From: Escherichia coli
GTDB lineage: Bacteria; Pseudomonadota; Gammaproteobacteria; Enterobacterales; Enterobacteriaceae
DNA length: 4,051 nt
Direction: 5' to 3' (one strand)
Assembly (NCBI RefSeq): GCF_024223415.1
Contig: NZ_CP100507.1
A program made the position numbers and the translations under genes. Numbering within the stretch: position 1 is the stretch's first letter; each line of letters begins with the position of its first letter. The notes beneath the pieces were generated by a model. The model was given only the letters and a program-made list of their open reading frames with translations, had not been told where the DNA came from and ran no database searches. Shown in pieces: positions 1-4,051 of the stretch.

Positions 1-887
1 GGGCGTTAAGTGGTCGCGATTATATATCTAATGCCGCTGTTCATACTAGGAAAAGAACAGTTATATGTCTTGATATCACCAATTTTTATCCCAGCATTAG
101 TAAAAAAGATGTTTGTTCTATTTTTAAAAATTTAATGCGTTTTTCTCCTGATGTTTCTTTATGCTTAACGGAACTTGTGACGTTGAATAATAAGGTCCCT
201 CAGGGTGGGTGCTGTTCTAGTTATATTGCAAATCTTTTATTTTTTAATAGTGAGTATAATCTCTATAATAGATTGAAGTCTATGGGGCTTTCATATTCAA
301 GGCTTTTAGATGATATTACTATATCTTCTGATAAGGATCTTTCATCAGAGGAAAAAACAAAAGTAATAAAACTCGTTCACGGAATGGTGAATCAGTACAG
401 ACTTTCAATAAATGAAAGTAAGACAACGATAGAGCACTCAAAAGATTCGTCTTCTAAACTTAGTGTCACTGGGTTGTGGGTAAAGCATGGTGTTCCTAAG
501 TTAACAAAAGAAAATAGACGTTATATCAGGTACTTAGTTTATATATGTAAAAAACAAGGTGCTTATGAACGTCATACGAAAGAGTACCATGATTTATGGA
601 ATAGATGCTCTGGCAAGGTTGCTCAAATGTCGAGGCTTGGGCATGTCCAGGCGGTTGAATTGAGGGCGATTCTTTCTGAGATAATGCCAGTTTATGATGA
701 TTACAAGATATCTAAATTAAAGTTGATGGCTAAGCACTATCTAAATAAGTTTACGCCGCCTTTAACTGATGATCAGATTAGGAAAATAGATAGGATGCTC
801 TATGATTTTGATATAGTAGGGCGGACTAATAAGAATCTTGCAAAACTATATAGACGTAAGCTCGTGGCATTACTTCCAGATAGGTGA
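1..887 (+). CDS. Retron-type reverse transcriptase, 3' part (nt 1-2 complete the codon begun at 4051; 294 further codons; TGA 885-887). Whole gene 3799..4051 + 1..887 = 379 aa
   Basis: Frame 3 is open from nt 3, upstream of the track's first Met at 135. RT motifs occur in the canonical order:
- ISNAAVH (NAxxH, 30-44)
- VICLDITNFYPSI
- VPQGGCCSSYIANLLF (PQG)
- YSRLLDDITIS (catalytic box, LLDD at 303-314)
- LSINESKT
- SVTGLWV (VTG at 465-473)
NAxxH and VTG are signatures I associate specifically with retron RTs. Confidence 0.9.
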   Translation, partial: ALSGRDYISNAAVHTRKRTVICLDITNFYPSISKKDVCSIFKNLMRFSPDVSLCLTELVTLNNKVPQGGCCSSYIANLLFFNSEYNLYNRLKSMGLSYSRLLDDITISSDKDLSSEEKTKVIKLVHGMVNQYRLSINESKTTIEHSKDSSSKLSVTGLWVKHGVPKLTKENRRYIRYLVYICKKQGAYERHTKEYHDLWNRCSGKVAQMSRLGHVQAVELRAILSEIMPVYDDYKISKLKLMAKHYLNKFTPPLTDDQIRKIDRMLYDFDIVGRTNKNLAKLYRRKLVALLPDR

Positions 888-891
888 TTAT

Positions 892-1095
892 ATGGAAAAT
901 GGATTTGTTAATTTTTATGACCATGTTAAAGGGTATGGCTTTATAAGGCGTGAGCGTGGACGTGATGTTTTCTTTCGGTATGATGATTTTTTGTTTTTAG
1001 GGCATGATGTCGATATATGTAAAGGTATTTTAGTTAGGTTTAAATTAGAAAAAACAGATAAAGGGTTTAAAGCTGTAGCGATTCAAAAGGTATAA
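892..1095 (+). CDS. Cold-shock-domain (CspA-like OB-fold) protein, 67 aa, translationally coupled to the RT
   Basis: ATG at 892 lies 4 nt after the RT stop, with AGGTGA (882-887) as a Shine-Dalgarno overlapping that stop. MENGFVNFYDHVKGYGFIRRERGRDVFFRYDDF... aligns by eye to CspA ([28 protein letters not shown]). The RNP1-like KGYGFI (928-945) and RNP2-like VFFRY (967-981) motifs are retained. The track's 838 start is a TTG inside the RT gene, so I prefer 892. Confidence 0.85.
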   Translation: MENGFVNFYDHVKGYGFIRRERGRDVFFRYDDFLFLGHDVDICKGILVRFKLEKTDKGFKAVAIQKV

Positions 1096-1134
1096 CATCG
1101 TGGATGTGTCAGCTTGTTTTTATGATATGAGAAC

Positions 1135-1163
1135 TTGAGATCCTTTCTATCTCGTCGTAATCT
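1135..1163 (+). promoter_or_regulatory. RNA II (replication primer) promoter
   Basis: -35 TTGAGA (1135-1140), 17-bp spacer, -10 TAATCT (1158-1163). The hexamers and context (cttgagatcc...cgtaatct) match the ColE1/pMB1 RNA II promoter. Confidence 0.8.
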
Positions 1164-1171
1164 CTTGCTGT

Positions 1172-1205
1172 GTAAACGAAAAAACCGCCTTGCAGGGCGG
1201 TTTTT
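1172..1205 (-). terminator. RNA I terminator hairpin (also stem-loop I of RNA II on the plus strand)
   Basis: ccgcc(t)-tgca-(g)ggcgg stem at 1185-1200, flanked by an A-run (1179-1184) and a T-run (1201-1205). On the minus strand the hairpin is followed by TTTTTTCGTTT. Confidence 0.75.
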
Positions 1206-1278
1206 CGAAGGTTCTCAGAGCTACCAACTCTTTGAGCCGAGGTAACTGGCTTGGAGGAGCGCAGTCACCAAAACTTGT
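1172..1278 (-). ncRNA. RNA I antisense copy-number regulator (~107 nt)
   Basis: The minus-strand 5' end ACAAGTTTTGGTGACTGC aligns with pMB1 RNA I ACAGTATTTGGTATCTGC. The 3' end is a GC hairpin (1185-1200) followed by a T-run on the minus strand. RNA I is fully complementary to the RNA II 5' end. Confidence 0.85.
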
Positions 1279-1284
1279 TCTTTC

Positions 1285-1314
1285 AGTTTAGCCTTAACAG
1301 GCGCATGACTTCAA
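1285..1314 (-). promoter_or_regulatory. RNA I promoter
   Basis: Minus strand: -35 TTGAAG (1309-1314), 18-bp spacer, -10 TAAACT (1285-1290), start near 1278. This matches the pMB1 arrangement (ttgaag...tacact...acagt). Confidence 0.7.
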
Positions 1315-1932
1315 GGCTAACTCCTCTAATTCGGTTACCAGTGGCTGCTGCCAGTGGCGATAAGTCGTGTCTTCTCGGTTTGGATTCAAGTCGATAGTTA
1401 CCGGATAAGGCGCAGCGGTCGGACTGAACGGGGGGTTCGTGCATACAGTCCAGCTTGGAGCGAACGACCTACACCGGGCCGAGATACCAACAGCGTGAGC
1501 TATGAGAAAGCGCCACGTTTCCCGAAGGGAGAAAGGCGGACAGGTATCCGGTAAGCGGCAGGGTCGGAACAGGAGAGCGCACGAGGGAGCTTCCAGGGGG
1601 AAACGCCTGGTATCTTTATAGTCCTGTCGGGTTTCGCCACCTCTGACTTGAGCGTCGGTTTTTGTGATGCTCGTCAGGGGGGCGGAGCCTATGGAAAAAC
1701 GCCATCGGCGCGGCCTTTGTCCCTGGCTTCGGCTTTTTGCTCACATGTTCTTTCCGGCGTTATCCCCTGATTCTGTGGATAACCGTATTACCGCCTTTGA
1801 GTGAGCTGACACCGCTCGCCGCAGTCGAACGACCGAGCGTAGCGAGTCAGTGAGCGAGGAAGCGGAAGAGCGCCTTATGTGACATTTTCTCCTTACGCTC
1901 CTCTATGCCGTTCTGCATCCTGTCCGGATGCG

Positions 1933-2127
1933 TTATATCCCGGTGCGATTTTCCGCTTCAAAGCGTGTCTGTATGCTGTTCTGAAGTTCTTCCGCGAGTT
2001 CGTGCAGCTTCTCACACATGGCGGCCTGTTCGTCAGCATCAAGTGCGTCCAGTTTTTCGAGCAGCGTCAGGCTCTGGCTTTTTATGAATCCTGCCATGTT
2101 GAGTACGGTTTGCTGCTGCTTGTTCAT
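1933..2127 (-). CDS. rop: Rop/Rom, RNA I-RNA II kissing-complex modulator (64 aa)
   Basis: MNKQQQTVLNMAGFIKSQSLTLLEKLDALDADEQAAMCEKLHELAEEL... aligns by eye along its length with pBR322 Rop (MTKQEKTALNMARFIRSQTLTLLEKLNELDADEQADICESLHDHADEL...). Its position and orientation relative to the origin match pMB1. GGAG lies 11 nt upstream of the ATG. Confidence 0.93.
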   Translation of the reverse strand: MNKQQQTVLNMAGFIKSQSLTLLEKLDALDADEQAAMCEKLHELAEELQNSIQTRFEAENRTGI

Positions 2128-2410: not shown

Positions 2411-2734
2411 ATGACAAAACGAAGTGGAAGTAATACGCGCAGGCGGGCTATCAGTCGCCCTGTTCGTCTGACGGCAGAAGAAGACCAGGAAATCAGAAAA
2501 AGGGCTGCTGAATGCGGCAAGACCGTTTCCGGTTTTTTACGGGCGGCAGCTCTCGGTAAGAAAGTTAACTCACTGACTGATGATCGGGTACTGAAAGAAG
2601 TTATGAGACTGGGGGCGTTACAGAAAAAACTCTTTATCGACGGCAAGCGTGTCGGGGACAGGGAGTATGCGGAGGTGCTGATCGCTATTACGGAGTATCA
2701 CCGTGCCCTGTTATCCAGGCTTATGGCAGATTAG
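2411..2734 (+). CDS. mobC: MobC-family ribbon-helix-helix relaxosome accessory protein (107 aa from ATG 2411; alternative ATG 2387 gives 115 aa)
   Basis: RPVRLTAEEDQEIRKRAAECGKTVSGFLRAAALGKK has the beta-strand/helix/helix RHH layout typical of MobC/NikA-type mobilisation accessory proteins. GGAG (2398-2401) lies 9 nt before ATG 2411. There is no Shine-Dalgarno before 2387. Confidence 0.7.
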   Translation: MTKRSGSNTRRRAISRPVRLTAEEDQEIRKRAAECGKTVSGFLRAAALGKKVNSLTDDRVLKEVMRLGALQKKLFIDGKRVGDREYAEVLIAITEYHRALLSRLMAD

Positions 2735-2898
2735 CTTCCAGGGGAGAAAACTGTCGAAAACAGACGGTATGAACACTGTAAGCTCCCAAAGTGATCACCA
2801 CTCGCTTTCATGCATAGCTATGCAGCGAGCTGAAAACGATCCTGACGCATTTCCCCGGTTTTCTTAGGGTAAAACATCTCTTTTTGCAGTGTCTGTGT

Positions 2899-2923
2899 CA
2901 GAATCGCGCTGAGCGCGATTCTG
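2899..2923. repeat. Perfect 25-nt palindrome (12-bp arms, 1-nt centre) abutting the XerC arm
   Basis: CAGAATCGCGCT-G-AGCGCGATTCTG. Its reverse complement differs only at the central base. The equivalent ColE1 cer position carries a shorter, imperfect GC hairpin followed by Ts (from memory). Confidence 0.85.
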
Positions 2924-2924
2924 T

Positions 2925-2954
2925 GGTGCGTACAATTAAGGGATTATGGTAAAT
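2925..2954 (+). promoter_or_regulatory. XerC/XerD recombination core: XerC arm GGTGCGTACAA (2925-2935), 8-bp central region TTAAGGGA (2936-2943), XerD arm TTATGGTAAAT (2944-2954)
   Basis: Direct read of the sequence. It matches the ColE1 cer core and is closely related to dif (GGTGCGCATAA-TGTATA-TTATGTTAAAT). Confidence 0.9.
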
Positions 2955-2958
2955 ACAA

Positions 2959-3225
2959 TTGGTTAAATTACTATTGGTGAGAAATGAATATTTCAATAAA
3001 AACAATGACTTAAAAACCGTTGCTCGGTTTGACGGTAAAACCTTAAGAGATGCCTTTTCGAGAAAAATAGCGACTTTTGATGGCAAGGTTTTAAGGGATG
3101 CCTCTTTAAAAAAAGTAGCAACCTTTGACGGTCAGAATTTAAGAGATGCTAGTTCAAAAATTATCCTGAGTGCCGATGCTGAGGTTGGGATTGTTGTTAT
3201 GGCCTTTGTAGCTGAGTTGATTTGA
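2959..3225 (+). CDS. Hypothetical small protein with three 16-aa tandem repeats and a hydrophobic C-terminal tail (88 codons from TTG 2959; GTG 2977 is an alternative start)
   Basis: Open frame from 2959 to TGA at 3223-3225. The repeats are VARFDGKTLRDAFSRK / IATFDGKVLRDASLKK / VATFDGQNLRDASSKI. The conserved residues use different synonymous codons between copies (gac/gat/gac, ggt/ggc/ggt, aga/agg/aga, gcc/gcc/gct), which argues for selection on the protein. Against: no in-frame ATG before codon 82 and no recognisable Shine-Dalgarno. Confidence 0.55.
   Translation: MVKLLLVRNEYFNKNNDLKTVARFDGKTLRDAFSRKIATFDGKVLRDASLKKVATFDGQNLRDASSKIILSADAEVGIVVMAFVAELI
3019..3162 (+). repeat. 3 x 48-bp diverged tandem repeat (3019-3066, 3067-3114, 3115-3162), in frame with ORF 2959-3225
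   Basis: Hand alignment gives about 31/48 identical nt between copies 1 and 2. The period is a multiple of 3, and much of the variation within the conserved F-D-G-x-x-L-R-D-A core is at third codon positions. Confidence 0.85.
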
Positions 3226-3507
3226 ATCTCATGCTGCATACCTTTTAGCCTATCGCTGGCAGGATAAGGCGCTTTCTTGTTGGTGACAGAAAGATAAAAA
3301 ACTTTATAATAATCAGCGAAGCGGGCGAACCACGCCTGGCTCTCGCTCTTTAACAAATGGTTACGTGTATGTTGCGCAAGGAAACCGATGCCTTGTTTTT
3401 AAGGCGATCTCGCATGAGATCATGACCGGCCTGGCCGCTAATTAATGGTGAGAACGCCCCTGAGCGTGTATCAGCACTAAAAGAATAGCGACGATTGTCT
3501 GGCAATG

Positions 3508-3520
3508 TGAGTTAAAAGTC
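3508..3520 (+). repeat. Inverted repeat arm a1 (candidate)
   Basis: 13/13 complementarity to 3780-3792. Confidence 0.7.
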
Positions 3521-3594
3521 CCAAAGAGCCAATAGAGTTTTTCCTTGCTTTCCTACTGGTCTGGCAAAATTTCATAACCAATAGGAGTTGCATC

Positions 3595-3777
3595 ATGTTT
3601 ATTATCAACATCAACATTAACGTAACCAAGAGCTCTTCATCTTGTTCTGGAGACGGTCAGATGAAGAAAAAAAGAGAGGTTGGCTCTCTGGAGGCACTGA
3701 AAAAAACACAGTTTTTGTTTTCTATGTGCTTGATTATGTTTAAAGTAATAGATTACGTATCGAAACTTTTTAACTAA
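3595..3777 (+). CDS. Hypothetical 60-aa ORF lying entirely inside the candidate retron ncRNA (internal alternative start 3661 gives 38 aa)
   Basis: AGGAG (3583-3587) lies 7 nt before ATG 3595, and GGAGA (3649-3653) lies 7 nt before the in-frame ATG 3661. The product MFIINININVTKSSSSCSGDGQMKKKREVGSLEALKKTQFLFSMCLIMFKVIDYVSKLFN is low-complexity with no motif I recognise. It may be non-coding. Confidence 0.3.
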   Translation: MFIINININVTKSSSSCSGDGQMKKKREVGSLEALKKTQFLFSMCLIMFKVIDYVSKLFN

Positions 3778-3779
3778 TC

Positions 3780-3792
3780 GACTTTTAACTCA
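3780..3792 (+). repeat. Inverted repeat arm a2 (candidate), preceded by a degenerate tandem copy at 3765-3776 (ACTTTTTAACTA vs ACTTTTAACTCA)
   Basis: 13/13 complementarity to 3508-3520. The adjacent near-duplicate offers an alternative pairing register. Confidence 0.7.
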
Positions 3793-3798
3793 AACATC

Positions 3799-4051
3799 AT
3801 GAATAAACCCAGGTTTAATGGAACTCCTGTTGCATCTTTGGATTCTTTATCTGCGATGTTAGGCATAGAAAGAAAAAGATTGGACTGGATAGTCAAGTCT
3901 GTATCGATGTCGTACAAGCAGTTTAAGGTTGAAACAGGGAAGAATAAAAAAGAAAGGCAAATTTTTGAACCCAAGAGATCTTTGAAAGGAATTCAAAAAA
4001 AAATAAATAAAGAGATTTTTGAGAAAATTGATTACCCTCATTATTTGCATG
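3799..4051 (+). CDS. Retron-type reverse transcriptase, 5' part (84 codons + 1 nt; runs off the window end and continues at nt 1)
   Basis: ATG at 3799 with no stop through 4051. An in-frame TAA at 3775-3777 makes 3799 the only available start. The translation MNKPRFNGTPVASLDSLSAMLGIERKRLDWIVKSVSMSYKQFKVETGKNKKERQIFEPKRSLKGIQKKINKEIFEKIDYPHYLH fits the retron RT N-terminal pattern (Y..F.h.K..G..R.I..P...LK.IQ..I...I). It is absent from the supplied ORF track because it is open-ended. No obvious Shine-Dalgarno. Confidence 0.88.
   Translation, partial: MNKPRFNGTPVASLDSLSAMLGIERKRLDWIVKSVSMSYKQFKVETGKNKKERQIFEPKRSLKGIQKKINKEIFEKIDYPHYLH

Follow-up and report, generated by a model that had tools for sequence, protein, structure and literature searches.

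Resolution at cer is carried out by XerCD together with ArgR and PepA, and recombination at this site is strongly biased toward intramolecular events. An ArgR site and the promoter Pcer have been described inside cer, RNAII, the ARG box, XerC and XerD follow a conserved order relative to oriV, and transcription of rcd has the same polarity as that of RNAII (PMC2831885). The spacer of Pcer is 15 bp long and Rcd is about 70 nt in length (PMC5935869). Recombination at oriT and at Xer/cer sites has been implicated in the evolution of ColE1 plasmids (Tran et al., 2012; Zakharova et al., 2002; both as cited in PMC6764390 and PMC8683028). In addition, Retron-Sen1 (Se72) has been described as a plasmid-borne retron (PMC6868368, PMC7736814) of type V in the sense of Mestre et al. 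(2020) (PMC7736814), and its plasmid in Salmonella Enteritidis has been known since 2001 (Rychlik et al., 2001, as cited in PMC6868368).

The DNA analyzed in this study, referred to as the window, is 4051 bp long and is a complete circular ColE1-type plasmid. Three records of E. coli (NZ_AP027712.1, NZ_AP027661.1, and NZ_CP066843.1) were 100% identical to it, and the Salmonella relatives of this retron plasmid, of 4050 and 4054 bp, were 98% identical. The cer-retron junction was also matched at ~728101–728279 of NZ_CM168014.1, a 5.7-Mb E. coli chromosome record, which reflects either an integrated plasmid copy or an assembly artefact. The features of the window are:

1–1095, plus strand: retron module, rest, with the RT gene to 887 and the cold-shock-domain effector at 892–1095
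1134–1900, plus strand: ColE1-type replication region; retron-less relatives match from 1134 onward
1176–1276, minus strand: RNAI (Rfam, 94.6 bits)
1933–2734, no single strand: remaining backbone (rom and mobA)
1933–2127, minus strand: rom (annotation of identical records)
2411–2734, plus strand: mobA (NCBIfam MobA, 113 bits; annotation of identical records)
2735–2924, plus strand: accessory region of cer, to the XerC side of the core, which aligns with ColE1 and further cer sites; outer limit approximate
2811–2824, no strand: ARG-box-like perfect 14-bp palindrome TGCATAGCTATGCA, aligned to TGCATAGGTATTCA of ColE1
2899–2923, plus strand: perfect 12+1+12 palindrome adjoining the XerC arm; by position the 3' hairpin of an rcd-equivalent transcript
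2925–2935, plus strand: XerC-binding arm GGTGCGTACAA, identical to ColE1 cer
2936–2943, plus strand: 8-bp central region TTAAGGGA, the place of strand exchange, identical to ColE1
2944–2954, plus strand: XerD-binding arm TTATGGTAAAT, identical to ColE1; its end is the last conserved backbone base
2955–3269, plus strand: AT-rich piece adjoining the XerD arm, with a 48-bp tandem repeat array (3028–3160) and an ORF (2959–3225)
3270–4051, plus strand: retron module, first part; Klebsiella homology from 3270, RT gene start at 3799; the module runs across the plasmid origin
3283–3310: near-consensus promoter-like site GTGACA-16-TATAAT, just inside the start of homology at 3270 (promoter scan)
3521–3532 and 3680–3691: inverted repeat whose 12-nt arms are separated by 147 nt, flanking a small ORF
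3595–3777: small ORF, conserved in Klebsiella (L008, 1323–1544)

The core GGTGCGTACAA-TTAAGGGA-TTATGGTAAAT at 2925–2954 matched ColE1 3909–3938 at 30/30 positions, in agreement with the first-pass annotation, which had read the sequence up to 2954 as typical ColE1 backbone and as the cer core. The 11-bp XerC arm, the central region (6–8 bp in cer-type sites) and the 11-bp XerD arm were all present, as was the standard orientation relative to oriV. Cer-type sites also have ~180–200 bp of accessory sequence next to the XerC arm, in which an ARG box lies ~100 bp from the core, and the left flank of the window aligned with those of ColE1 and 29 other sites. The accessory region at 2735–2924 is presumably the counterpart of the ArgR/PepA-binding stretch in ColE1. 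Within it, TGCATAGCTATGCA is centered ~107 bp ahead of the core, aligns with the ArgR site of ColE1 and overlaps the place of the Pcer -35 hexamer in ColE1; it is a putative ArgR site. RNAI is on the minus strand, which means that RNAII and replication proceed rightwards and that RNAII, the ARG box, XerC and XerD are found in the conserved order (PMC2831885). Positions 2735–2954 are identified by these features as a predicted cer-type multimer resolution site, made of ~190 bp of accessory sequence and a 30-bp core. Similar to ColE1 cer, it possesses the 30-bp core, an alignable accessory side with an ARG-box-like palindrome and the same orientation to oriV (PMC2831885). Different from ColE1 cer, however, its accessory region is just ~60–64% identical, the hexamer at the position of the Pcer -10 is TGAAAA rather than TAAAAT, and its terminal hairpin is a perfect 25-nt palindrome from which the T-run has been lost.

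The cargo occupies the remainder of the circle. Backbone homology starts with the hexamer TTGAGA (1135–1140), which we take, by comparison with pMB1/ColE1, to be the -35 element of the RNAII promoter, and 1134, at this putative promoter, is the second edge of a variable cargo slot. The product of the RT gene (3799–4051 and then 1–887) was matched by RT_V of PADLOC with an E-value of 2.6e-127, and that of the effector gene (892–1095) by CSD_V of PADLOC (E-value 3.4e-25) and by retron_eff_Se72 of NCBIfam (85.2 bits, cut-off 82). As both the clade-specific RT and the cold-shock-domain effector of type V retrons are present, the cargo is identified as a predicted plasmid-borne type V retron, Retron-Sen1 (Se72). 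The promoter-like site at 3283–3310, the inverted repeat and the small ORF are candidates for the region of the retron non-coding RNA, for which no Rfam match was found in the window.

The retrons of Klebsiella plasmids were 78–87% identical to that of the window at the nucleotide level, and this homology was found from 3270 onward only. A different stretch of 266 bp lies between cer and the retron in the Klebsiella retron plasmids, and the piece at 2955–3269 is absent from one of them (L008). Thus, the DNA adjoining the XerD arm is a family-specific piece upstream of the shared part of the module. No more than 19 plasmid records contained positions 2955–3300, and every one of them belongs to the plasmid family of the window. 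The copy number of the 48-bp repeat (3028–3160) varied among relatives, with 96 bp more in plasmids of 4148 bp; plasmids of 4100 and 4244 bp were also found. The ATG at 2984 shares the frame of the repeat ORF or not depending on a 1-bp indel after 2997; it is out of frame in the window, and RefSeq annotates a TTG start for this ORF. The ORF at 2959–3225 may be a protein gene or a DNA/RNA element of the retron.

The GC content was 0.48 to the left and 0.22 to the right of 2954/2955 in 50-bp flanks, and 0.46 and 0.34, respectively, in 200-bp flanks. With 200-bp windows, the largest GC drop of the plasmid was found at 2917–2933, and 2954 ranked 96th of 4051. Composition by itself thus fixes the break to ~30 bp, and it was comparison with relatives that fixed it to the base. 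Plasmids pEA04.7 and Shigella sonnei p75-02_7, which share the backbone and carry other cargo, matched 1134–2954 at 95% identity, and both matches ended exactly where the XerD arm ends. A 501-bp query spanning the junction identified 734 plasmid records, from which 58 outside the plasmid family of the window were sampled evenly; their alignments ended at 2953–2960 in 55 cases, earlier in 3 and beyond in none. Among 30 distinct cer sites with the XerC arm of the window, gathered from genomes and plasmids by pattern search, the information content was 1–2 bits per column over the 120 bp before the core, 2.0 bits in the XerD arm, where it is partly forced by the search pattern, and 0.0–0.3 bits from the next base; as the XerC arm was fixed in the pattern used for genome contigs, breaks within that arm are invisible in this sample.

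The first-pass annotation had claimed an abrupt switch to AT-rich DNA from 2955 and a cargo boundary exactly at the XerD arm, and both claims held in these comparisons. Alignment of ColE1-family plasmids with and without this cargo placed their breakpoints at the core, and only relatives of the same family, which share the cargo, extended past 2954. A break flush with the XerD arm is, however, the default for cer sites, being universal among those compared by sequence. Thus, the flush boundary is not diagnostic alone and is no sign of a special event in this plasmid.

Some megablast matches ended at 2970 or 3149, and neither position was retained as a breakpoint: the former corresponds to an insertion of a Tn3-family inverted repeat at 2970/2971 in derivatives, and the latter to copy-number variation of the 48-bp repeat. 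In two such derivatives, NZ_CP138772.1 (L005) and NZ_CP051740.1 (L006), the inverted repeat GGGGTCTGACGCTC... begins 16 bp past the XerD arm; the positions of the window involved are 2970/2971 and 1090/1091. The whole retron cargo is replaced by tnpR-blaTEM-1 in L005, and the RT gene is cut off by IS26 at 188 in L006. In addition, many exact cer cores were found on short contigs of assemblies with non-enterobacterial labels, among them Rhizobium, Hymenobacter, Cutibacterium and a Streptococcus mitis MAG (within L011–L043); these contigs look like contaminating small plasmids of enterobacteria. A further five sites of similar sequence were on large contigs labeled Scandinavium, Dryocola or Chryseobacterium, and these share a common right flank.

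Evidence for exchange at the core came from the combinations of left and right flanks. The window combines a left allele, A, with the retron cargo. Plasmid pECOD1-7 (L050, 3173 bp) combines allele A with another cargo, Y; it had 0 differences from the window over 2294–2955, the perfect palindrome included, and was unrelated to it from 2956. A second left allele, B, is joined to cargo Y in L035, whose right flank was identical (1.00) to that of L050, and to the retron cargo in p8GC-4kb (L052), whose left allele was 0.97 identical to that of L035. For all four combinations to exist, exchange must have taken place between 2924 and 2956 at least once.

Three relatives that carry the retron also differed from the window almost only in tracts with one end at the core. 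The 4054-bp plasmid NZ_CP130128.1 of Salmonella Schwarzengrund (L045) differed from the window at 89 positions, all within 1658–2924, and its remaining 2784 bp, including the core, the cargo with the retron and the RNAII region to about the origin, had 0 differences. Its backbone half is thus ~7% different and its cargo half identical, with the switch at 2924/2925. The identical half includes the RNAII/RNAI replication control to ~1657, and the swapped half is the accessory half with rom, mob and cer. Similarly, 65 of the 67 differences of L052 were in 1518–2924 and 17 of the 21 differences of pMB9635_5 (L051) were in 2777–2924. In all three plasmids the last difference of the tract was at 2924, immediately ahead of the XerC arm; as all tracts were compared with the window, this common end partly reflects changes specific to the window, a dependence from which the four-combination test is free. 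The other end of the swapped tracts varied within the common backbone (~1518, 1658, 2293, and 2777–2853). In complete E. coli genomes, moreover, no fewer than four accessory alleles were linked to the retron cargo junction. These comparisons show, at the level of sequence, that backbones and cargo have re-assorted across the 30-bp core. A hypervariable patch at 1704–1734, just downstream of the predicted replication start, varied among otherwise near-identical backbones, and the left ends of the tracts of L045 and L052 fall shortly before it.

As the relatives of the window all carry TTAAGGGA, they are uninformative on the break point within the core. Eight Klebsiella-type sites were informative. 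Their left flanks were 94–100% identical over 120 bp, their central regions were different in each (TCATGGCC, TTAAGGGA, TTATAGCT, and others), and their right flanks were unrelated pairwise. Two of the sites compared, L020 and L025, have identical left flanks and different G/T variants of the XerD arm, and the variant therefore travels with the central region and the right flank. This pattern places the switch beside the XerC cleavage position, as Xer exchange predicts. The cer site of pF374-4 (NZ_OY754375.1, L048) reads GGTGCGCGTAA-TGCGACG-TTATGGTAAAT, with a central region of 7 bp. Its left flank was 98% identical to that of L045, and the break follows the sixth base of the XerC arm rather than the cleavage point.

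We consider it probable that the core serves as the joint and that the new combinations arise in two steps, a homologous crossover and then resolution by XerCD at the cer cores. When two related ColE1 plasmids are co-resident, a homologous crossover at any point of the backbone they share would produce a heterodimer, which XerCD, ArgR and PepA would then resolve at its two cer cores. In the product, the DNA between the crossover point and the XerC arm would come from one parent, and the central region, the XerD arm and the cargo from the other. Recombination would also keep the sharp joint sharp. Flanking sequence is required for function only on the XerC side, so that constraint on the backbone ends with the XerD arm and the rest, to 1134, is a free cargo slot. 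The reverse order of the two crossovers would give identical products; given the intramolecular bias of cer, however, direct Xer fusion of two plasmids should be rare, which favors the homologous crossover as the first step. The first-pass annotation had proposed shuffling between plasmids by XerCD. Its exchange at the core stands, on the four combinations and the tracts ending at 2924, and from the position of the junction we infer the part of XerCD. The break within the XerC arm between L045 and L048, off the cleavage position, is a counterpoint to XerCD catalysis.

That same break, with no cleavage point at its position, would be expected if RecA-dependent homologous recombination or gene conversion alone were at work and the core were merely the last block of identity between unrelated cargos, and the left junctions of the swapped tracts do lie in ordinary homologous backbone. 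We regard this explanation as unlikely. The 30-bp core makes up <2% of the 1.8-kb common backbone and yet is the endpoint of every cargo swap seen, although a block of 30 bp is close to the minimum length for RecA-dependent exchange; moreover, the eight Klebsiella-type sites diverge at the first bases of the central region, by the XerC cleavage position, rather than at scattered positions. It is still less probable, and in our judgment very improbable, that there was no recombination at the core and that the boundary is only the end of constraint, with cargo changed by unrelated insertions, deletions or transposition near cer. An edge of conservation is expected anyway, as the XerD arm holds the last functionally required base, and the Tn3-family end at 2971 in L005 and L006 shows that other events occur nearby. 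However, the four combinations demand exchange between 2924 and 2956, L045 joins an identical cargo half of 2784 bp to a backbone half that is 7% different with the switch at 2924/2925, and independent insertions would not share one base. Target-site duplications or transposon ends were not seen at the edges of the retron cargo.

The boundary flush at one Xer site and the precedent of the Acinetobacter pdif modules (PMC7399989, PMC5790767) might also suggest that the cargo is a Xer-dependent integrating module with two sites, IMEX or pdif-like, of which the second has decayed. Both strands of the window were scanned with spacers of 6–8 bp and with the arms alone, and no second Xer core was found; the best candidates, at 204–233, 249–278 and 3302–3331, had 7 mismatches each. 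In 181 of 200 block-shuffled sequences the best site had 6 or 7 mismatches, which puts these candidates at chance level, and the first-pass annotation was correct that a single core is visible. The regions that it had recommended for a search, 3226–3500 and 1096–1134, gave no better candidate, and 1096–1134 gave none. A weak direct repeat of 14–15 bp, TAAATACAATTGGT/TAAATTACTATTGGT, was noted at 2950–2978, overlapping the end of the XerD arm; its second copy has 3 mismatches as an XerD arm, is indistinguishable from chance and was rejected as such. In addition, the slot is bounded on its other side by the putative RNAII promoter, and the swapped units run from the core into the backbone rather than from site to site. 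With no second site found and none needed, a two-site module is unsupported, and we give it hardly any credence. The likeness to dif-integrating phages and pdif modules that had been suggested for this locus was accordingly not borne out, as those modules are flanked by two sites.

The palindrome next to the XerC arm differs from its counterparts in other cer sites. Its arms, 2899–2910 and 2912–2923, are 12 nt long and 100% complementary, and as RNA it had a folding energy of -17.9 kcal/mol, equaled by 0 of 200 shuffles. The counterpart hairpins of ColE1, L003, L002 and a Klebsiella plasmid had -9.2 to -10.5 kcal/mol, confirming the earlier impression that the palindrome is more symmetric than that of ColE1. 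In other cer sites, the counterparts are imperfect hairpins followed by TTTT or TTTC. ColE1 reads TTGCAT, 15 bp, TAAAAT and, ~70–78 nt downstream, a short hairpin with TTTT adjoining the XerC arm, and the palindrome of the window sits at the position of that hairpin. Inside it, alleles A and B differ by five substitutions, at 2909, 2911 (loop), 2918, 2922 and, for some relatives, 2905. The two in the right arm, at 2918 and 2922, pair formerly mismatched bases, which makes the 12-nt arms perfect and removes the T-run. The T-run after the hairpin is broken at 2916–2924 (GCGCGATTCTG), and the hexamer TGAAAA at 2831–2836 is 15 bp past the -35 equivalent. No promoter was found within cer by a consensus promoter scan, and RNAI was the sole match of the window in Rfam (E-value mode), where neither cer nor Rcd is represented by a family. 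Expression or termination of the Rcd checkpoint RNA may differ from that in ColE1.

The perfect palindrome belongs to backbone allele A and not to the cargo, as relatives with the same retron cargo have the imperfect version. Among the records compared, the allele-A accessory patch (~2851–2924) was seen only in the retron plasmid group, its Tn3 derivatives and pECOD1-7. The palindrome might be functional, either by altering or abolishing the Rcd checkpoint or because a hairpin or cruciform by the XerC arm changes recombination at the core, but we consider this unlikely. If it were functional, it could explain the presence of the retron cargo on so many backbones.

For annotation, a sharp break in composition or homology at the XerD arm is best read as the default of cer and not as evidence that an insertion was recent or unusual. 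Similar to the Acinetobacter pdif modules and to IMEX elements, in which host XerCD sites bound mobile DNA (PMC7399989, PMC5790767), the cargo of the window adjoins such a site; those elements, however, are flanked by two sites or integrate at dif, whereas the window has a single site. The exchange is closer to the ColE1 model of Tran et al. (2012) and Zakharova et al. (2002), as represented in the papers that cite it, in which the Xer core also joins the exchanged segments. Different from that model, the second joint is a variable point in the backbone (~1518, 1658, 2293, or 2777–2853) rather than oriT, and the cargo is a retron rather than qnrB19 or a restriction-modification system. Similar to the Retron-Sen1 (Se72) plasmid, an RT and a cold-shock-domain effector are encoded on a small plasmid; the copy described here is from E. 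coli, however, and the published work, as represented in later papers, concerns the retron rather than the cer junction. Thus, while the role of cer, the Xer-site route of ColE1 evolution and the retron plasmid were already known, this study adds a clear natural instance with defense cargo, in which anti-phage defense would move among small multicopy plasmids without mobile-element machinery of its own.
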